Source: Chrysochromulina tobinii (lineage: Eukaryota). From it: a stretch of DNA of 34,452 bases. This document shows positions 8,083 through 33,900 of the stretch, piece by piece. The stretch covers positions 1-34,452 of the forward strand of contig JWZX01001759.1 of NCBI GenBank assembly GCA_001275005.1, read 5' to 3'. Position numbers and translations under genes: made by a program. Numbering within the stretch: position 1 is the stretch's first letter; the number at the start of each line of letters is the position of its first letter. The notes beneath the pieces were generated by a model. The model worked only from the letters and a program-made list of their open reading frames with translations. It searched no databases and was not told the DNA's origin.

Positions 8083-9558
8083 ATGTCGTCTCCTAATTCC
8101 AAGCGCCGCCGCACAGATGGCCGTGGAGATGACTTCCACGATGGGCCCCTTCCACGACACCCACTCGGCACCTCCCGATGGAACGGCCCTGATTCGGATT
8201 CAGATGAGGATGCCGCACCGCCCGCTGCCAAAACGGCGGCCGCAGGCAGTTCGAGCCTTGATCACATGCGCAAGAATCTTGAGGACTTCAAACGCCTTGG
8301 TGGTGGCTCTGCGGAGACCACGGAGGCTGTTGTGGACGGTGGGGGGGTGCTTGGGAGTGCATCGAGCCCTGCACTTAGCACGACGCCGACTGGGGTGGAA
8401 GCTGAGGTCAGATGCTGCATCGATGCTGCTGGGTGCGCCGCCACGATAGGATCCTCGGATGCTGGGCCGTCGACGCTGAGCCTGGGCGAATCTGCACGTG
8501 ATCCAGCTGCACCGCTGCAGAGCGGCCGCATATCCTGTCTACCTCCGATCTACCGCGGTCGCTGCCGTGGTGTTGACAAGTTCGAAAAGATTGCGAAGCT
8601 CGACGAGGGAACCTACGGCGTGGTATACAAAGCCCGCGAGCGCGACACCGGGGATATTGTGGCGCTCAAGCAGATCAAGATGAACCACGCAGGTTCCGAG
8701 GGCTTTCCGCCGACGGCGCTGCGAGAGCTCAACATCCTACTTTCCCTCAAGCACCCACACGTGATCAACACACGCGAGATGGTCGTGGGCGACACGCTGG
8801 ATAAGATCTTCATGGTGATGGACTTCATGGAGCATGACGTGAAGCAGCTCATGGCGGCGATGCGCTCGCCTTTCACCGAGGCCGAGGTGAAGCGCCTGAT
8901 GCTCGACTTGACCTCTGCCCTCGCCTACTGCCACGATCGTTGGGTGTTCCATCGCGATCTAAAGACGTCGAACCTGCTGATGAACAACCGCGGCGAGGTG
9001 GCCATCTGCGATTTTGGGCTTGCTCGCTATTACCATGAGCCACTGAAGACCTACTCGCCGACGGTGGTCACGCTGTGGTACCGGGCACCCGAGGTGCTCT
9101 TGGCGGACGGCGGGAGAGGTGAGAAGACGACGTACGGCCCCGCTGTCGATGTGTGGTCACTCGGCTGCATTTTCGCGGAGCTTGTGCTCCGCGCGCCGCT
9201 ACTCAACGGCCAGGGCGAGATCGATCAGGTCAAGCGCATCTTCGAGCTCCTGGGCACGCCCGACGAAGAAACGTGGCCGGGCTGCACCGCGCTGCACTTT
9301 CTGCGCAAGTACCCGCAGCGGCGCCAGCCGTTCAATCGGTTACGCGACAAGTTCAAGCGTGCGACCTTCACCTCGGCCACCGCTCTCTCCGAGGCAGGGC
9401 TCGACTTGATGCTGAAGATGCTCACGCTCGACCCGAACCAGCGCCTCTCGGCGAGCGAGGCGCTCAAGCACCCGTACTTCCGTGAGGAGCCTCCCCCTAA
9501 GCCACACCACCTTATGCCCACCTTTCCGTCGACGCATCGGTCAGATGCGCGTCGCTGA
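8083..9558 (+). CDS. Cyclin-dependent kinase, CDK11/CDKG (PITSLRE-type; here PPTALRE)
   Basis: DEGTYGVVYKA, EGFPPTALRE, HRDLKTSNLL, DFGLAR, VVTLWYRAPE, C-terminal MPTFPS. Confidence 0.9.
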   Translation: MSSPNSKRRRTDGRGDDFHDGPLPRHPLGTSRWNGPDSDSDEDAAPPAAKTAAAGSSSLDHMRKNLEDFKRLGGGSAETTEAVVDGGGVLGSASSPALSTTPTGVEAEVRCCIDAAGCAATIGSSDAGPSTLSLGESARDPAAPLQSGRISCLPPIYRGRCRGVDKFEKIAKLDEGTYGVVYKARERDTGDIVALKQIKMNHAGSEGFPPTALRELNILLSLKHPHVINTREMVVGDTLDKIFMVMDFMEHDVKQLMAAMRSPFTEAEVKRLMLDLTSALAYCHDRWVFHRDLKTSNLLMNNRGEVAICDFGLARYYHEPLKTYSPTVVTLWYRAPEVLLADGGRGEKTTYGPAVDVWSLGCIFAELVLRAPLLNGQGEIDQVKRIFELLGTPDEETWPGCTALHFLRKYPQRRQPFNRLRDKFKRATFTSATALSEAGLDLMLKMLTLDPNQRLSASEALKHPYFREEPPPKPHHLMPTFPSTHRSDARR

Positions 9559-15301: not shown

Positions 15302-18300
15302 TCACCTCATCCGCACCGCGGGGAAACGCAGCAGGGACTCGGAGGCAGCTGAGTCGCGATCCGAGCCGCGGCTCGAGTCCGAATCACAAGATAGGCGCGA
15401 CGAGCGCAGAGAGTGCAGCGAGTCGCGGATCGAGTGACGAAGCGAGGTGCGGATCTCCGGCGACGAGTACTCGAGCGTAAGCGCCTCGAACTGCTCGTTC
15501 ATCTCGACCGAGAGCGGCTTGCGCAGCGGTGAGAGCACGGGTGCCTCGAGGGTGTACTTGGTGTCGAAGTTGGACACGTCGCTCGTCGGGTCGGCGGCAT
15601 TCAGCGTGGGCACAAACGGCGCCTCAAGCTTCCCGAGCATCAGCAGCTTCCAGTTCAGGTTGCGGAAAAAGGGGTGTGTCTTGAGGGAGGCAAAGTCGGA
15701 CTGACACGTGGGCGACTCTTCTCGGACACCGAGCCGCTGGGCGGGGTCCTTGGTGAGAAGCCCTTTGATGAGCCCCTTGGCCTCATTCGTGAACCAAGAG
15801 GGCAGCCGCAGCTTCGTGTGCACGATCTTGCGCTGCAGCTCCTTCTGCTCCTTGTGCCACCACGGCGCCTCGCCCGTCATCATCTCGTAGAGCAGCACAC
15901 CTGATGAGGGAGGCAATCAGAGGTCATCAGAGGTCATCACACCTGATGAGGCGTCATCAGCTCGTAGAGCAGCACACACCGAGCGACCACACGTCTCATC
16001 AGAGGTCATCAGAGGTCATCAGAGGTCATCAGAGGTCATCAGAGGTCATCAGCACACACCGAGCGACCACACGTCCACCGCCTGGCCACAAAGCATGCGC
16101 CGCAGCACCTCGGGCGCCATGTACTCGGTCGTGCCAACCAGCACAGGCCGGCCTGAGGCGGACGTGTGCGTGGCGGAAGCGGTCAGCCCAACGGCTGCGA
16201 GCCCGAAGTCACAGAGCTTCGCGTTCCCGTCGGCGCAGATGAGCACATTCTCCGGCTTGAGGTCGCGGTAGATGATGCTCTGCGCATGCAAGTGCTCGAG
16301 CGCGAGCATCACCTGCCAAATGAGGGAGGTCATTAGGGAGGTCATTAGGGAGGTCATTAGGGAGGTCATTAGGGGGGGTCATTAGGGTAGCCATGAGGGT
16401 GCTCGAGCGTCGTGACGATCACCTCGGCGGCATAGAAGCGCGCCATCTTCTCCGAGAACATCTCATGCGCCCTCAGGTGCGCGAAGAGCATGCCGCCCGG
16501 CACGTACTCCATCACGAAGTGCAGCTTGGACGCGCTCTGGAAGGCACATTCGAGCCCGAGGATGAACGGGTGGCGCGCCTCGGCATGCTGGCGCAGGATG
16601 CTCAGCTCGATCGCAATATTCTCCATCGAACGATAGCGCTCAATGGACGCCTTATCGACCACCTTCATCGCATAGATCTGGTGGTTGAGGTGGCAGCGTA
16701 CTTGGAAGACCTTGCCGTAGCCTCCCTTGCCCACGAGCCGCAGTAGCACAAAGTCGTCCATGGAGAGCGTGCGCATGCTTGCCGTCTCCGCCAGCTCGAG
16801 CTCCTCCACGAGCGCGTCCACCGCCTCCGCCGCCGCCGCCGCCGCCACACGTGCCAAAAAGTCCCCATCGAGCGGCGACGCGAGGTGCTCACCATGGCGC
16901 TCGTTGGCGTCGCTCCTTACGCTGCCCGCCGCCGCCTCCTCCGCCGCCTCCGCCGCCTCCGCCTCCTCCGCCTCCTCCGCCTCCTCCGGCGCCGAGATCG
17001 ACCGCAGCAGCGCGGCGAGGGCCGCCGTGAGCTCTGCCGCTGCCGCTGCGGCATGCGCCCCATCGTACCGCGGCAACTCGCCGCTGATCAGCGAGCGACT
17101 CGACGGCGGCACGATGATCTTGAGCACGACGGGGGGGCTCGGCGGCGTCGTTGCGGGCGGCGTCGTCGCCGCGCTCGCGCCGGCGTCGTTCTCGTCAGGC
17201 ATCATCGAAGTGTCTGGATCGGCCAGATTGAGCGTCGTCGCGGGCGTCGTCGTCGTGGGCGCCGCAGTGCCCGTCGGCACCGCAAGCTCGTCTGTGACCG
17301 TGGCGCTGAGTGGTGGGCGCAGGCCGGTGGCAGCAGCAGCGGACGTTGAGGCGCCGACGGCGGGCGCGCTGCGCTGGGCACCTGGTGGCGGAGCGCCGTG
17401 CTGGGCGGCGGGAGGCAGCTTCATCGAGTGTGGGAAGTTGTGCGGCGGAGAGTGCCGAGGGTGAGGGGTGTCAGGACCGTGCAACGGCTCCCTGATCTCG
17501 TCTTCGATATCATCGTGTAAGGGCTCCCTGATCTCATCGTCGTGCGCCGCCTCGATCGACATATGCACCGGATCCGATGCTGCCCACGACGGCGCGGCCG
17601 CGCTGCCGGCCGCTGCCCACGACGGCGCCATGGGAGCCGCGACGGCGCCAGTGCCGGTGGATGCTGCAGCAGGGGTGGGTGGTGTGACCGAGGAGGAGGT
17701 CGAAGAGGCGGGCGTGGGTGTGGCCGAGGAGGCGAGGAAGGAGGAGGCCGAGGAGGAGGTGGAGATGGCTGTAGTGCTCGACGCGGCGCTCATGCGCAGC
17801 ATCGAGGAGACGGAGGCTGCCTCGAGCCCCCCGCTACCCGCCTTGGCCCCCGGCGAGAGAGGGCCGCTGCTCGCTGTGGGCGGCGGCCGGCTATGTAGAA
17901 GCGATCCATGGCTAAGGGTGGCGGGGAGGGCATCGAGGTGACGCAGCTCTCCCAATGCGGTGGCAGCCGCGCTGCTCTGCTGCTTGATCTTCTGTGCCGA
18001 GGACTTGAACTGATACAGCCGATCCAGCATTGCCTGGCCCTCATCCGCCGATGCGCCCGCGACGGCGCCGGCGCCGCGTCCGCCGCCGCCGCCGCTGGCG
18101 CCCACGCCGGCGCCGGCGCGTCCCCCCCAGGCCCCCGCAGGGGGCTGCTTGCGCCACGTGGCGTCGGGCGACGCGCCGGCGGCACTGGCGCCGAGGCTGC
18201 TCCCCCACGCGCTCGGCTTGGGCGTGGACGTGCTGAGTGGGTGCGCCTCCTCCTCCTCGCGCGATTCGCGCGGCGCCACGTGTACGGTCTCGACCGTTGG

Positions 18301-20172
18301 TGCCCGCCACGGCGCGTGCATGGCCGAGGCGGCCGCGGAGGCCGAGGCGGCCGCGGAGGCCGCGGAGGCCTGCGGTGCGCCCGGCTCGGCGGGCATCGTC
18401 AAATCCGCCTCCTCCCACGAGGCCACGGAGACGGTCGACATGCGGTTGCTCGGTCGGCCTGATGGGCGGGCCGAGGGCTGCAGCGAGCGAGCGTCCGGCG
18501 CCGTCGTGGGCACCGGCGCGGCGGACGGAGCGGCTGAAAGAGGCGGCGCGGGGGGCGCAGGTGGAGCTGGTGGCGCAGATGGAGCTGGTGGCGAAGGCGG
18601 AGCTGGCGGCGGTGGAGCTGGCGGCGGTGGAGCTGGCGGCGGTGGAGGCGGAGGAGCGGCGGAGGGCGGGCCGTCGGCGCCAGCTGCGGCTGCGGAGGCG
18701 GCTGCGGAGGCGGCTGCGGGGGCAGCTGCGGAGGCGTCTGCGGGGGCAGCTGCGGAGGCGTCTGCGGGGGGCCATCGCCCCTCGTCATCACGAGCCATCT
18801 GGCGCTGCAGCGTGGCCAGCTCGTACTCGAGCTGCGGAATCGAGAGCACCTGATGAGGGAAGCCATCGGAGGTCATCAGTGAGGCAATCAGAGGCAATCA
18901 GCTCATACTCGAGCTGTGGAACTGAGAGCACCTTGGCCTGTAGGGCCTCGGTCAATCAGAGGCAATCACATGCAATCAGAGGCAATCACATGCAATCATA
19001 GGCAATCAGCGGTCATCAGTGAGGTAATCAGAGACCATCAGAGGCCATCAGAGGCCATCAGAGGCCATCAGAGGCCATCAGTACCTTGGCCTGTTGGGCT
19101 TCGTTGAGAGGTTTGCCATCAGCGTGCTCCTGCTGCACCGCGAGGGCCTGCCGGAGCTTCTTGAGGATCGCTCGCTCGCGCTTCTCCGCCTCGCTCTTGG
19201 CACTGCTCGTGGCCTCGGCGGCCGGGGTGCCCGCTAGCTCGTACGAAACTGCCGCCTCGGCCATCGGCTGAGTCTCGGCAGACAGCGCGCCCTGCGCCTC
19301 TGCGGCCGCCTCTGCGGCCGCCCCTGCGGCCGCCTCGGCTGCCTCGGCCGCCTCCGCCGCCTCGGCCGCCTCCATCCTGGCTCGTAGCGCCGCCTTCTTC
19401 CTCTCCCGCGCGGCCGCCTTCGCAGCGGCCGCCTCATCGGCGCTCGCCTCGGCGCTCGTCACGGCGCTCGCCGCACTGCTCAGCACGGCGCTCGACTCGG
19501 CGCTCAGAACGGCGCTCGCATCGGCGCTCAGCACGGCGCTCGCCTCGGCGCTCAGCACGAGTTTAGTCACGGCGCTCGTCTCGCTGGCCGTGGCACGGCC
19601 CTCAGAAGATGGCGTGACAGCCCCCCCAGCTGCCCCGACGGGCAGTGCCGTGTCAGTGGCCTCGGCCGATGGTGGCGCCGCGGCCGCGGGCGGCGGCGTG
19701 GCCGCGGCCTTGGCGGCGGCCACGTCCTCAGCGGCCGCCTGCGCGGCCTCCAACTGCGCCTCCGCCGCCGCACGCTCCTCCTTGAGCTCTGCCTCGCTCG
19801 CAAGCTTCTGCAGCTGCTCCGCGGTGAGGGTCTTGGCCTCGAGGCTGCGTGGCGAGAGGCACATCGACCCGGAGGGCGTGAGTGGCATCCACTGGAACTC
19901 GCGATGGGCAGCTCCAGGCGGCAGCATGTGCGTTGCGGCGGCAGTGCTGACCTTCGGATTTCCTCAATCTGACGCAGCTTCTTCGTGAGCGCACGGATGC
20001 GCTTGTTCAGGGCTGTTACGGGATCGTCGATGGACTGCGCGAGACACAGCCGCGCTCTCAGGTCAGCAGCGGGAAGAGCGGACACGGTGCTGAGCATGAT
20101 GGGTACGTCGCGCGGGTCTGTGCAGCTCGTTTCACGCACCACCACAGCCGTGGATGGCCCCTCGGTTGCCAT
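15302..20172 (-). CDS. S6K-like AGC kinase with a long N-terminal extension (~1419 aa); exons 20172-19952, 19844-19085, 18849-16423, 16312-16060, 15900-15302
   Basis: [54 protein letters not shown] tail APFVP...DVSNFD; four GT-AG introns give one continuous frame (4260 nt). Confidence 0.85.
15901..16059 (-). other. Repeat-family intron #2
   Basis: G|GTGTGTGCTGATGACCTC...TGATTGCCTCCCTCATCAG|GTGTG; internal junction copy 15952-15995. Confidence 0.88.
16313..16422 (-). other. Repeat-family intron #3 (12-mer CCCTAATGACCT variant)
   Basis: GAG|GTGATCGTCACGACGCTCGAGCAC...(CCCTAATGACCT)n CCCTCATTTGGCAG|GTGATGCTCGCGCTCGAGCAC. Confidence 0.88.
18850..19084 (-). other. Repeat-family intron #4
   Basis: AAG|GTACTGATGGCCTC...CCCTCATCAG|GTGCTC; internal junction copy 18899-18950. 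Confidence 0.88.
19845..19951 (-). other. Ordinary GT-AG intron
   Basis: AG|GTCAGC...CCACGCAG|C joins [13 protein letters not shown] in frame. Confidence 0.75.
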
Positions 20173-24904: not shown

Positions 24905-27767
24905 TCAGAAGCCAGTGAAGAGCTCCGAGTCGGCGGGCTTGCACGGCTTCGCATCAGTGACGATTCTCTCCGCGGGCAGCCATTCGTACTTGGACGCATC
25001 GAAGAGGGGAGGCTTAAAGGCAGAGCCGCGCTGCGCATAGTCGGTCCAGTCGAAGCCCGATTTGGCATAAAAGGGGTGCTCCTTGATGTCCTTGCAGCCG
25101 TCGCGCAGGTTGCCATACCGCTTCGAGATATCCTTCTGGAGCAGCTTGGAGATCAGATCTGCCGCATCGATGTTCATCTCGGGCGGGTAGTGGACCGTGC
25201 CGTCGAGGATCTTTTGGTACGTCGCTAGGTGGTCCTCGGCCTCAAAGGGCGAGTGGCCGTTGAGCATCTCGTAGAAGAGAACGCCCATCGCCCAGTAGTC
25301 GACTGCCTTCGAGTGCCCCTTCTCGAGGATGATCTCGGGCGCGAGATACTCTGGTGTTCCACAGAGCGTCCACGAGCGGTACTTGATGACCTTCGCGAAG
25401 CCAAAGTCGGTCAGCTTGAGCGCGCCGTCCTGGGCGACCAGGATGTTCTCGAGCTTGAGGTCGCGGTGTACGATGCCCATACTGTGCATGTACTCGAGAG
25501 GAAGCATCACCTGCCGAGGGCGAGCGACCGCGGGCGGTAAGTGGGGGTTGTGTGTGTCTGTGTAGGGGTGGGGGTGGGGGGGAGGGCAGAGGGCGGAAGG
25601 CGCGTGCCTGCGACACGTAGATACGCGTGTCGGGGACGGAGAAGCGCTTGTGCTTATACAGCTGGTCGAACAGGTCGCCGCCCGGGCAGAACTCCATGAT
25701 GAGAATGAGGTTGGACGGGGTGACAAAGCCGGCCCACTTGTTGGTAACGAATGGATGCGCTATCCTGTCGAGGATCTGCGTCTCCTGCATAATGTGCTCC
25801 ACCTGGCCCATCGAGACAATGTCCGCCTTCTGCATCTGCTTGAGTGCAAAGACCTCGCCCGTGCTCCTCACGCGGCATCGGCGCACTGTACCGAACGCGC
25901 CTTCGCCGAGCGTCCCTTTGGTCACTGTGAAGTCACTCAGCGTCATCGGGCGCTGCGCCTTGATGTACTTGTGCTCGTTGGGCATCTCGACGCCTGCGCT
26001 CGCGCTGCCGGTGCTCTCCGCGTCCGCGTCGCTTGCCTGCTGCTGCAACTCGGCGCCGCTCGCAGTGTACTTGCGCATCGCGAGCAGTTCCCCCAGCGGC
26101 CCTAGAAGCCGTTGGAAGGCGCCGCGGTCCATACGCACGACGGTCGTGCCCGCGGCGGCGGCGGTCACTGACGCCATCGTGGGCGCCCCCGTCTTGAGTG
26201 ACAACTCTCCGAAGTAGTCTCCCTGATGAGGGATCACTCAGATGCAATCAGATGCAATCAGATGCAATCAGATGCAATCAGAGGAGACACGTTCGGAGCA
26301 TACCTCCCTGCGACGTGCGAGCTCGCCCTGGCCCGCCTTGGTGATCACCACCTCGCCTCGCGCGATCACATAAAAGTGGGTGCCTTCCTCGCCCTCGGTG
26401 ATGATCGCGTCATCCTGGGCGTAGGTGACCTCCTCGAGCGCATCCACCATGCGGTTGCGCTGGTCCTTGTCCAGCGGCGCGAGCAGTGGCACCTTTTCGA
26501 GGAACGATTCATAGCTCGCCGCCTTCTTCGTGTTCGCCTCGAGCACGATCGTGCGGAACGAGACGCGATCGAGCGACCATAGCACAACGGGAGTCGCCGC
26601 CTGGATCGTCGCCGTGCGCGGGCAATTGTACATGAGCGCGAGCTCCCCAAACGACTCGCCCGCCCGGAAGCCCCTGACGCGCACCGGGTGGCTGTCGGGA
26701 TCCTCCCCCTGCACAAACGCATCGAGCTCGCCACTGTCCACGATGAAGAAGTGGTTCCCCTTCTCGCCTTGCGTGATGACATTCTGACCGGGGTGTATTG
26801 TGTGCTCCATCATGGCCTCCTGCAGCATCGTCAGCTGCATCTCGTTGAGCCGCGAGAAGATGACGTTGCGACTCACCGCCCCCATGATGCGCGCTACCTG
26901 CTCCGTGGTCTTCTTCTTCCCAGATGCGACCTTGCCGGTCAAGACGCCTGTCGTCGCCTCCGCCGCCTCACCAAAGCGGCGGCCGCGCATCTTGCTGCCG
27001 GCCGGGGCGCCCTCAGCCTTGAGCGCGAGCTGCTGCTGACCCGCCTCCCGCACGAACGCATGCAACGGCACCAGCTTCAAGAAATCCTCCTTTCGGAACG
27101 TGGCGCACCACACCGCCGTCTCCGCGCGGCGTGTCTCCTGGTGCTTCGAGTTCTGCAGAAGCTCGACGTGCCCAAAGTAGGCCTGCCGGCCGTACTTGGT
27201 GCTCTCGGCTGGGCCGCCCGCGACCGCGACCACCGTGCCTTCACGCACGACGAAGAACTTATTGTCGCCCGGTGTGCCGACCTCGTGCATCGTGGCGCCT
27301 GCCGCGTAGCGCACCTCGCGGCACGCGTCGGCGAGCAGCCCAAGCTCGTAGTCTTCGGAGAGCTCGGCGAAGATTGGAAGCAGCCTGAGAAAGGGGACCC
27401 ACTCGGCGCGCTTCTTGACGATCTTGTCGCCGAGCGCTGCATTGAACGCGCGCCGATTCACCATGAGCAGAGTCACCTCCGGCGAGGTCGCCATGATGCT
27501 CGCGCTGCGCGGCTTGCCGGTCAGCAGCGAAAGCTCACCGCACCACGAGCCGGCGGTGAGGGAGCGGACGTTGCGCCGCTCACCCGCGCTGTCCGCCATC
27601 CACACGTCGCACGTGCCGCTCTTGATCAGGTAGAAATTGTTGCCCTTGTCCCCTTGCCGCATGATGACCTCCTGTTGCTTCACCTGGACCTCTGCCATCG
27701 AGTCGACGAAGCCTCTCCGCTCCTCGTCGGTGTCCATGTAATTGTGCAGCAGCGCACAAGGTGGCAT
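24905..27767 (-). CDS. Cyclic-nucleotide-dependent kinase: four cNMP-binding domains fused to a PKA-C-like kinase domain; exons ~27767-26304, 26222-25608, 25510-24905 (5' end uncertain)
   Basis: Phosphate-binding cassette motifs CGELSLLTGKPRSAS, FGELALMYNCPRTAT, YFGELSLKTGAPTMAS; kinase LGEGAFG, HRDLKLEN, WTLCGTPEYLAPE, KRYGNLRDG, ends FTGF-stop. Confidence 0.88.
25511..25607 (-). other. GC-AG intron
   Basis: CAG|GCACGC...CTCGGCAG|GTG gives YVSQ|VMLPLEYMH in frame. Confidence 0.8.
26223..26303 (-). other. Repeat-family intron #5
   Basis: GAG|GTATGC...(TGATTGCATC)4 TGAGTGATCCCTCATCAG|GGAGAC gives ARRRE|GDYFGEL. Confidence 0.88.
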
Positions 27768-30948: not shown

Positions 30949-33900
30949 CTAATCGCGCAACGTCCACACCCGAATCGTCTCGTCGAGCGAGCCTGAACAC
31001 GGGCGCCCCTCGTGCACGACGAGGCTGTACAGACCCCCTCGATGGCCCGCGAGCACGCGCAGTCGCTCGTACGTGCCCAGATGCCACACGATGCAGGTCT
31101 TGTCCGAGGAGGCGGAGAAGAGCCGTTGCCGGTGCGCGTCGGCTGCGAGCGCGCACACGAAGCTGCGGTGGCCGGCCAGTGTGGCTTGTTGCTCGAGGGA
31201 TGCGAAGTCCCAGACGCGAATGAGCCGATCGCCGCCGCCGGAGAGCAAGCGCAAGCCGGCGGCCGAGCCGGCGGGCGATGGCGGCGACGGCGGCGACGGC
31301 ACGAGCAACAGAGCGTAGACAGCGCCGTCGTGGGCGATCGGTTCGAGGCGGCCCCGTGCACGGAGTGTGTACAGAGGCGCAAGGGTGCGAGCGTCCCACA
31401 CACGAATGGTCGCATCGGCGGAGGCCGAGACGAAGCGCTCAGTCGCGTAGATGACGATCGCATGGATCTCGGCCTCGTGAGCCTCCTTGGCGAGGTGTGT
31501 CAGGGTGATGCTCGGGCGGACCATCGCCGAAGCACCTAGCCCGAGCCCACCTGCCCTGCCTGCCCTGCCTGCCGGGTGGACCGCCGCCGAAGCGTCCTGC
31601 AACGTCGCGGGCGATGGATCGGGCGCGGGATAGGGCGCCACGCTGGGCGGTGCATGCGGAGATTGGATCTCGAGCCGCGGAGATTGGAGCTCGAGCCGGA
31701 GCTCGAGCCGGCTGATCCCGCAGTCTGCGGAGCCGCAATACACTGGGCCGTCGGGAGTGGCCGCGCTGGCGCACAGCACGCTAGCCGCGTGCACCGTGCA
31801 CCTCTGCATGCACTCCCAGCGCCCAGAGCCACCTTCAGGTGGGCGCCACAGCTGAACTGTCCCGTTGGCAAGCCCGGCCAGGAGCACGCCGCGCAGCGGT
31901 AAGAGGGCGAAGACTGTCGTGTCGTCAGCCGCATCCGCCTCGACGGATCGAGCAACAGCGGGCCGTGGCTCGAGTGCCAGGGCAGCCTGAGCAGCGCAGT
32001 CGAGCTCGACTACCAACCGCCATGCCGCACGCGCCCCAGCTGCCTCCGCCTTAGCACCCTGCGCTGCCGCCGGCGCGCTCCGCTCCGTCTCCGCCGACGC
32101 TCCCTCGGCGGACTCTCGATGCTCCTCCTGCCAGATGCTCACCTTGCCATCCGCGCCACCTGAGAGCAAAATGGGGTTGCTGCTGTCGGCGGGTGTCAAT
32201 GCCGGTCTACCCAGGGCCGCGTCGGCGGTGGCGAGGGACCAGACGCAGCCACGATGGGCAGAGAGAACCTCCGTCGTCGGCTCTTCTGCCAGGTCCTGAG
32301 CGCCTGGGCGAACCGGGACGCGGTGAAGCGCCAGCGCACCGTCCACGCTCCCGGAGAGTAGCTGCGTCGCTGCCCGGCCGGTGCGCCGGGTTGGATGATG
32401 AAGAGGAGCGGCTATGAGCGATAGGATGCCGGAGGAGTGAGCAGCACAGCGGACGACCGGTAGGCTCGGTAGGCTCGGTGGGAGGGAGGTGGCGGAGGCG
32501 GCGGAGCCGGCGGAAGCGGCGCATTGGACGGCCGCCGCCGCATCCCAACACAAGAGTTCGCCGCGTCCGCCCGCTCCATGCAACCACCCCTCCGCATCGG
32601 CCGCCAGTGCACAGACGGAGCCCTCGCCGCTAGTCAGCTGGCCGACTGCCCTTCGCCCCGGCACGTCCCAAAGCACAACGTGCCCCTGTGCATCGGCCGA
32701 GGCGAGCTGGAACGTGCCCGCGAGCGGCGTGCACCCAGTCCTCGCGGGGTCGCCTGCTGCGGCTGCGGCGCCATCGTCCAGCACGGGTGGTAAGAGCGCT
32801 GCCAGAGCAAAGACCGACGCACGATGCATGCTCGGGTCGAGCGTTGCCACCGCGCTCAGATCGGCGCGATTCCACAGACGCACGCGATGGTCCGCCCCGG
32901 CGGTGACGACGAGGGACGACGCGGCGAAGGCGAGAGCGTAGACACCACCGCCCTGCTCGGTCACGTGCACGCGCGCCGTTGGCAGCATCGAGCCGCCTGC
33001 GAGACCGAGCACCGGAAGCGGGCGGACGGACCATCGCAACAATTCGCCTTTCGCATCTGCAGAGAAGAGAACCGACGCGGCGGCATCGGCGGCAGCGGCG
33101 GCGGCACCAGCTTCTGCGTACGCTCCGCTGGCGCAGGCACAGCAGAGCACGCTCCCCGTGTGGCCCATGAGCGCCACGATGGCGCGGAACCGCATGAGGT
33201 CCCAAATGCGTATCGATCCATCGGCGGAGGCGGAGACTAGCTGGCCTGAGGGGGTGAGCGTCAGAGCGTGCACCTGCTCGAGGAGTGCCTTCCGATGAGG
33301 GCCGCAATCAGAGGCCATCACATGCAATCACATGCAATCAGAGGCCATCAGAGCGTGAGAGCGCGCACCGCATCCGTGTGGCCGCGAAGCGTCGCCACCT
33401 GCTCGGCCATCGCGGGCACTTGAGCGGGCGCGGCCGCCGCTGCTGTGCCATCTAAAACGGCTCCTGCGGCCACGTAACCACCATGGCCGGCCACGTAACC
33501 ACCGTCGCCGACCACGCGGCTGCCCACGCTGCCAGCTGCGCCACCGACCACACCGCCGACCGCGCCATCGCCTGCGCCGGCCAGGTCGGTGGCGAGTCGC
33601 GGTACGCATGCATCCGGAGTCCAACGGCAGAGGCGGATCTCGCCATTGCCGCCGCCGCATGCAAGCGTGTGGTCTGGCAGCATCAACATGGACCAGACGC
33701 ACGTGCCGTGCGGCTGGATCTGGCACGGCGCCGTGCCGAGCGCCACGTACCCAGGCGCCTGCGCGCCCGCCACGGCGCCCGTTGCGTTCGACTCTTCGCT
33801 GACGGCGCCTGCCACGGCGCCATCTCCCGCGATCTGGCCGCCGGAGGCCGCCGCACCAGTTGCGGATCCTCCCGAGATCGGAGCTCGGGTTTCGGCAGCC

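Follow-up and report, generated by a model that had tools for sequence, protein, structure and literature searches.

The locus described here raises the question of how an intron of 159 nt came to hold, between its working donor and its working acceptor, repeat arrays and copies of the ends of both exons that flank it. It lies in GC-rich eukaryotic DNA of the haptophyte alga Chrysochromulina tobinii (contig JWZX01001759.1). The whole stretch analysed, 34,452 nt long, is called the window; all positions refer to it, and features are on the minus strand unless stated otherwise.

Splicing and composition of the intron

A continuous protein-kinase profile was obtained from three minus-strand exons (Pfam Pkinase positions 3-105, 108-182 and 186-256), the kinase C-terminal domain (Pkinase_C) was also matched on this strand, and a cluster look-up identified the spliced protein as KOO32492.1, an S6 kinase-like protein of C. 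tobinii. The intron at 15901..16059 sits between the second and the third of these exons. The upstream exon (16060..16312; Pkinase 108-182, seen in RNA contigs) ends ...DVWSL G in phase 1, its last bases being TCG, and its last 16 nt (16060-16075) are the template of a copy inside the intron. The last kinase exon (15302..15900; Pkinase 186-256 and Pkinase_C, read by translation) starts GT GTG CTG CTC TAC GAG ATG ATG ACG, and its first 17-26 nt are likewise the template of an internal copy.

The original prediction placed this intron and another junction-copy intron, at 18850-19084, in the same kinase gene. This was borne out, the frame being open for 809 codons from the 18850-19084 intron to the kinase exon. 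The connecting frame (16423-18849) is of low complexity and links the kinase with exons further upstream, so that the 400 residues annotated probably represent the final part of a considerably longer protein. Within this frame, 27 nt at 17373 are missing from one RNA contig.

A joint of 159 bases with CT..AC ends was found in contigs of 2 of 3 RNA runs (X14 and X15), while run X18 showed no joint at 15901-16059. An additional run contributes an RNA contig that is compatible with this joint and also bridges the neighbouring 110-nt intron. The segment 15901-16059 is a spliceosomal GT-AG intron whose outer GT and outer AG are used, and it is removed as a single piece in the mRNA contigs seen. Use of an internal acceptor near 15943, which had been considered originally, was found in none of the listed joints, and the internal donor was unused in all of them, contigs being prone to drop rare forms. 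On translation, use of the internal acceptor alone brings a stop codon into the spliced frame. The extra GT of the internal copy had been expected to shift the frame of that copy; it is without effect on the protein, since the 159 bases, the copy among them, are skipped as one piece and the two exons stay in frame with each other in the mRNA. At 15980-15997 an AG and a GT frame an in-frame 15-nt pseudo-exon that would repeat DVWSL; no joint using it was present in the RNA contigs seen.

A direct sequence check found all the elements described originally at their minus-strand places within 15901-16059. The intron opens with the working donor GT (16059-16058), which together with 8 nt of next-exon start (16057-16050) forms the start of module 1 (16050..16059), as in the allele ending SLGVC* described below. 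Module 1 consists of this GT, the 8 nt of next exon and a decamer array of 54 nt (15996..16049) with about 5.5 units of CTGATGACCT (TRF period 10, 5.7 copies). This array terminates in CTGATGAG, the reverse complement of the cassette end. Module 2 comprises 16 nt that match the upstream exon end exactly (15980..15995), a second donor-like GT with an exact 17-nt next-exon start (15961..15979, taken as the module 2 start) and an 18-nt cassette remnant, CTGATGACG-CCTCATCAG (15943..15960), in which both inverted ends are present around a 4-nt loop and whose internal CCTCATCAG (15951-15943) is the unused acceptor motif. Module 3, of 42 nt (15901..15942), begins with GTGTG (15942-15938), 5 nt of the next exon, followed by 28 nt of units up to the final CCTCATCAG (15909-15901); put otherwise, it holds GTGTG, two units and a 30-nt terminal cassette that carries the working acceptor.

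The 44-nt block recognized originally (15995-15952) is composed of 16 nt of upstream exon, exact, a GT and 26 nt of downstream exon, 25/26 identical. The 26-nt copy is present, but its last 9 nt can equally be read as the start of the 18-nt remnant (CTGATGACG plus CCTCATCAG), so that the unambiguous copy of the downstream exon amounts to 17 nt. Two exact copies of the 16-mer were counted in the window against 0.08 expected (one unrelated match with two mismatches lies at 9148), and two of the 17-mer against 0.01 expected; both exon copies are beyond chance. The 18-nt remnant is predicted to form a DNA hairpin of -4.6 kcal/mol, which 1 of 200 shuffles equalled, and the 30-nt cassette, with its 7-bp inverted ends, folds weakly (12 of 200 shuffles as good).

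An Rfam search of the repeat units (15891-16048) returned four C/D snoRNA matches of 13.8-20.8 bits, below the thresholds of 36-60. A C/D-box snoRNA identity was rejected on these scores, the matches being explained by words in the repeat unit that we take to resemble boxes C and D. The unit also holds CTGAT, presumably branch-point-like, and, being a decamer, differs from the telomere repeat that we assume for haptophytes.

Donor alleles and related introns

The exon-2 proteins of other assemblies run into the intron to the first stop and so report its first bases. Fourteen such proteins were present in the cluster: eight end SLGVC (41 contigs), four end SLGVCCSTS or SLGVCCSTI (6 contigs) and two end SLGV (65 contigs), the contigs of an allele not being independent samples. 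When module 1, module 2 without its upstream-exon part, and GT plus module 3 were each placed at the donor, exactly these three ends were produced; these translations were computed after the alleles had been seen, and the alleles were read from protein ends and not from DNA. The GT plus 17-nt run lies directly at the donor in the allele ending SLGVCCSTS*, and the SLGV allele would be GT plus module 3, among other possible readings. The modules of this intron thus differ between strains. In the simplest account, GT plus module 2 plus module 3 would be a hub allele, from which loss of module 2 between two GTGTG runs would give the SLGV allele and a donor-side duplication the allele of the window; the direction of these steps is not fixed. 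Since the outer splice sites are used, the protein is intact and the modules vary between strains, the stacked modules are carried as tolerated passengers, and no function is predicted for them.

Within the window, six introns or arrays of this decamer type were counted. The other junction-copy intron, of 235 nt (18850-19084), contains a decayed internal copy of 21 nt of upstream and about 33 nt of downstream exon, in the same order of parts as in 15901-16059, and was recovered without differences in one contig in each of two DNA runs. Its splicing was not seen; RNA contigs cover it unspliced. The 110-nt intron (16313-16422), bridged by an RNA contig, is built of a 12-nt unit variant with a decayed next-exon-start copy at its 5' end, and it is absent in the relative P0060. 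On the plus strand, at 2448-2643, two modules of 81-91 nt are present in which a 24-nt exon piece occurs three times in a TPR-like frame; the exon piece starts GA, and the donor is this GA or an in-frame GC inside the copy. Of two further minus-strand repeat introns, at about 33277-33370 and 26223-26305, one carries a copy of the exon start (18 nt, 2 mismatches) and has its acceptor displaced beyond a decayed motif, and the other has no exon copy.

A scan of metagenome contigs yielded at least 129 stretches with the exact 22-nt end, at least 103 of them distinct. Thirteen of the 103 were left out for short or repeat-filled flanks and 90 were used, all among the matches listed; these loci were chosen by the 22-nt exact match, and some come from repeated assemblies of possibly one culture. 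A copy of the next-exon start was found upstream of the cassette in 56 of the 90 loci among the matches listed, against a mean of 1.35 and a maximum of 3 when exons were swapped between loci in 20 rounds; the other 34 showed no such copy at the score threshold. The copies range from 8 to 47 nt in a continuous spread with no fixed length. The next exon begins with GT in 63/90 and with GC in 17/90 of these listed loci, counts that stand without a control set of ordinary introns of this genome. The exon-start copies are the pattern of an insertion whose target duplication would supply the donor. Ten of the 56 first copies (same listed loci) differ from the exon in their first 6 nt, too few to call a drift of the donor towards a stronger consensus. 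The terminal motif had no match in viral contigs. At L115 the first bases of the duplicated piece are CT, and with a donor 21 nt into this piece the protein would retain a duplication of 7 residues.

Stacked structures recur in the family. Two or more acceptor motifs occur within 260 nt in 37 of the 90 loci among the matches listed, and inspection by eye of 20 automatic matches retained donor-spanning copies at nine of these 90 (L006, L011, L013, L031, L038, L051, L059, L119 and L126). L038 and L059 are architectural twins of the kinase intron: a short exon start, an array, the upstream-exon end with a longer exon start, an array and an acceptor. A second assembly contains L038 without change over 706 nt (as L089). 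Among 11 aligned locus pairs, L006 and L091 represent one intron with different modules, and L117 equals L060 plus one 43-nt module. Non-repeat leaders are common to otherwise unrelated loci (L014, L033 and L123; L032 and L128), which suggests copying between introns.

The structure described originally for a single gene is real as far as could be tested; that view overlooked both the family to which the intron belongs and the variation of its modules between strains. The intron at 15901-16059 is one elaborate member of an apparently undescribed intron family and not a separate system.

Origin of the intron

Twenty-five related kinase sequences read through the intron site, a 26th match being the annotated spliced protein. 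Inspected by eye, P0012, P0019, P0020 and P0060 run into apparent introns elsewhere and are therefore probably derived from genomic DNA; some of the other read-through relatives may come from transcripts. In a midpoint-rooted tree, the two rows of C. tobinii type group together (100/99) and are nested within the read-through rows; the tree holds 17 rows (2 of 19 were skipped), 9 of its 14 inner branches are open, the intron state of P0041 was inferred, and P0002, the nearest relative, is unscored. No empty site was seen in C. tobinii. A gain of the intron at this site is favoured by these comparisons, not proven.

The intron was probably gained in the C. tobinii lineage by insertion of a cassette with duplication of the target exon, and then probably rebuilt by local DNA copying that stacked the three modules. 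In a first step a cassette of about 30 nt, consisting of two imperfect decamers and CCCTCATCAG and copied from another intron of the family, would have entered at G|GTGTG. A staggered duplication would have put next-exon bases at the 5' end of the intron, where their GT became the donor, and the cassette would have brought the acceptor. Subsequently, a slip of GT would have lengthened GTGTG at the donor. In a third step, to which the alleles point, modules would have been added or removed by slippage between exon and array, frequently where 2-3 bases match: acceptor-side modules made of exon start, units and acceptor, and donor-side modules made of exon end, donor and units. The decamers would have expanded locally.

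Template switching through microhomology, as proposed originally, is supported for the joints from exon copy to array, but not for the return from array to upstream exon. The test used the 23 of the 56 copy-bearing loci that have a periodic array right after the copy; the mean overlap at these 23 joints was 2.48 nt against 0.72 simulated, a value reached in 0 of 3000 simulations. For array-to-copy joints the mean was 1.08 against 0.67 (P=0.095, not significant) in 12 hand-picked cases, 10 from loci, one of them an intron-internal copy, and 2 from the window. At 15901-16059 the overlaps are 3 nt at the donor, 2 nt at the third module, 8/9 nt at the second and 0 nt at the array-to-upstream-exon joint.

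For the first step, we slightly favour repair of a staggered break templated on the DNA of another intron over priming on an RNA copy; the insertions were linked to no transposase, reverse transcriptase or polymerase. On an RNA template, a reverse transcriptase would use a nick to start copying an excised intron from its 3' end (CAG), run on for a variable length and rejoin at a few matching bases; every module with CCTCATCAG at its end would then represent a separate new insertion at one and the same site. Target duplications of variable length, a fixed 3' end and a variable 5' end with microhomology are hallmarks of target-primed reverse transcription and non-LTR elements. All three were found here: the 3' end is fixed exactly at the acceptor, the 5' end varies between loci with microhomology of 2.5 nt, and the target copies span the 8-47 nt given above for the loci among the matches listed. 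The exon end and the cassette end share little (0-1 nt in 30 of 50 cases), and the shared leaders look 5'-truncated. Against an RNA template, the elements end in CAG, without the A-rich or simple-repeat 3' tail of non-LTR or SINE-like elements, and no enzyme was linked to them; the cassette does not close the modules of the donor side; slippage alone explains many of the stacked modules, which are near-identical tandem copies (L007, L099, L100); and selection for splicing would also fix the 3' end. We consider this route unlikely, with some chance of being correct.

Old introns could instead have been remodelled in place, with no gain at all. A slip from exon to array would then copy the acceptor and the exon start, a deletion would run from the old donor to the copied GT, and the cassette would spread by gene conversion. 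L091 provides a precedent, having gained an exon-start module at its acceptor while its donor has no exon copy, so that exon-start modules can arise without a new intron. This explanation is made distinctly unlikely by the 25 relatives that read through the site and by the 80 of 90 downstream exons, among the matches listed, that start with GT or GC, apparently more than is usual for ordinary introns.

We give a similarly small chance to a scheme with no fixed element, in which reverse transcription at staggered nicks would insert the 3' ends of excised C. tobinii introns; with every insertion 5-50 nt of exon would be duplicated and turned into the donor, and the modules would regenerate CAG|GT and permit stepwise recursive splicing. 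A GT or GC follows 38 of the 59 internal acceptor motifs in the 90 loci among the matches listed; no splicing intermediate was present in the contigs, which drop rare forms. If this scheme were true, a site could be re-seeded and its intron lengthened with no damage to the protein.

The interior block could also be a product of assembly, if, for instance, two alleles had been placed in tandem over the repeat; the real intron would then be simpler. The joints between array and upstream-exon copy (15996/15995) and between remnant and module 3 (15943/15942) are known from the window assembly alone, and the GT plus 17-nt part is backed by other assemblies through the protein ends. DNA run X2 gave no contig over 15951-15994 at 100% likeness, and X1 and X7 list no interior piece; such holes prove nothing, as short pieces between high-copy repeats may be dropped. 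An antisense-frame search crossing the interior returned 101 repeat-driven matches, none from the 15901-16059 locus. An artefact of this kind would fit the existence of the three modules as separate donor alleles and the reference assembly, which according to the available text was produced by merging shredded contigs and reads (PMC4580454); a possible mis-join was also encountered at L105 and L118. These two loci, in two assemblies, carry an identical exon-derived module between unlike flanks, which may reflect a mis-join at a repeat or a whole intron copied to another gene. However, 16 nt of upstream exon would not recur behind an array if alleles had merely been joined; no interior joint has more than 8 nt in common with its sources, which is not enough for a path in the assembly graph; and an equal order of parts is found at L038 (two assemblies), at L059 and in the contig-covered 18850-19084 intron. 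We therefore regard an assembly product as quite improbable, and the intron is real as far as this could be tested.

Reinsertion of a reverse-transcribed piece of the gene's own mRNA is hardly credible: the 44-nt block does join the upstream-exon end to the downstream-exon start like a spliced junction, but it has the extra GT, which is present at the working donor and absent from the mRNA, and the GT plus 17-nt run stands at the donor in other strains, so that a rare RNA mis-spliced two bases late would have to be supposed. The extra GT argues that the junction copy was made from the genomic donor junction and not from cDNA of spliced mRNA.

Comparison with known systems

In the broad sense of the term, the family behaves like introners: sequence is shared by many unrelated loci (at least 103 distinct) and an insertion signature is found at the exon boundary (56/90 against 1.35, among the matches listed). 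It was not filed with MITE-type introners, since target duplications of 8-47 nt do not have the fixed length of that type. An intron made by tandem genomic duplication (Rogers model) was also rejected: the acceptor comes from the cassette, the exon ends in TCG and there is no duplicated AGGT pair. New introns flanked by direct repeats elsewhere resemble the present ones in that a duplicated exon piece gives a splice site; there, the filler differs each time or both sites come from a duplicated AGGT, whereas here a common cassette supplies the acceptor at many loci, and CAG precedes the donor in the exon in only 11 of 50 cases.

In the available text on Symbiodinium and Polarella glacialis, introners of classes 4/5 and 6/8/10 have a duplication length fixed per class, at 3, 4, 5 or 8 nt (bioRxiv 10.1101/2020.10.14.339549). 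As far as described there, the likeness to our family is close: the target duplication provides the 5' splice site while the element brings its own 3' splice site, the following exons start with the donor dinucleotide, and the short inverted ends have a putative counterpart in those of our cassette. The present family differs from that description in its variable duplication of 8-47 nt, its locally expanding decamer array and its stacked polymorphic modules.

Among haptophytes, introner fam24 of Emiliania huxleyi is listed in the available part of a survey as about 70 nt long, "co-opt 5', carry 3'", with 10bp terminal direct repeats, class unknown and 5 copies (PMC12130899). It shares the haptophyte host and the polarity with our family, a relation by sequence being no more than possible. 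An introner reported for a Chrysochromulina sp. MAG by Gozashti et al. 2022 has, in the text available, a 4-bp duplication and no inverted ends, carries its 5' site and co-opts the 3' site (bioRxiv 10.1101/2022.06.06.494994); it shares with our family the genus label and the nature of an intron-making repeat family, at opposite polarity. GC and GA donors are documented in E. huxleyi in the accessible part of a further paper (PMC4028052), and the accessible text of the C. tobin genome paper mentions introns once (PMC4580454). A review (PMC11282704) holds no haptophyte passage, and the available account of Replitrons (PMC10288648) gave no match to this family. No description of the family was found in the published literature, subscription papers and some supplements lying outside the scope of the search. 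Introns of E. huxleyi reportedly contain 10-11-bp tandem repeats (Read et al. 2013), and we know of no exon duplication or terminal cassette in that description.

In its available part, the similarity-based survey of 8,716 genomes by Gozashti et al. 2025 gives no families for C. tobinii (PMC12130899), a sign that counts of families with a repeat body and variable duplications may be too low. The origin of most new introns cannot be traced; here the target copies are long and readable. Three alleles matching three modules at one locus make the birth and early remodelling of an intron traceable within one species, and variable duplications together with a fixed 3' end make the choice between DNA repair and an RNA template testable in a cultured alga. 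New in this analysis are the three donor alleles that match the modules and the 25 related kinases that read through the site.
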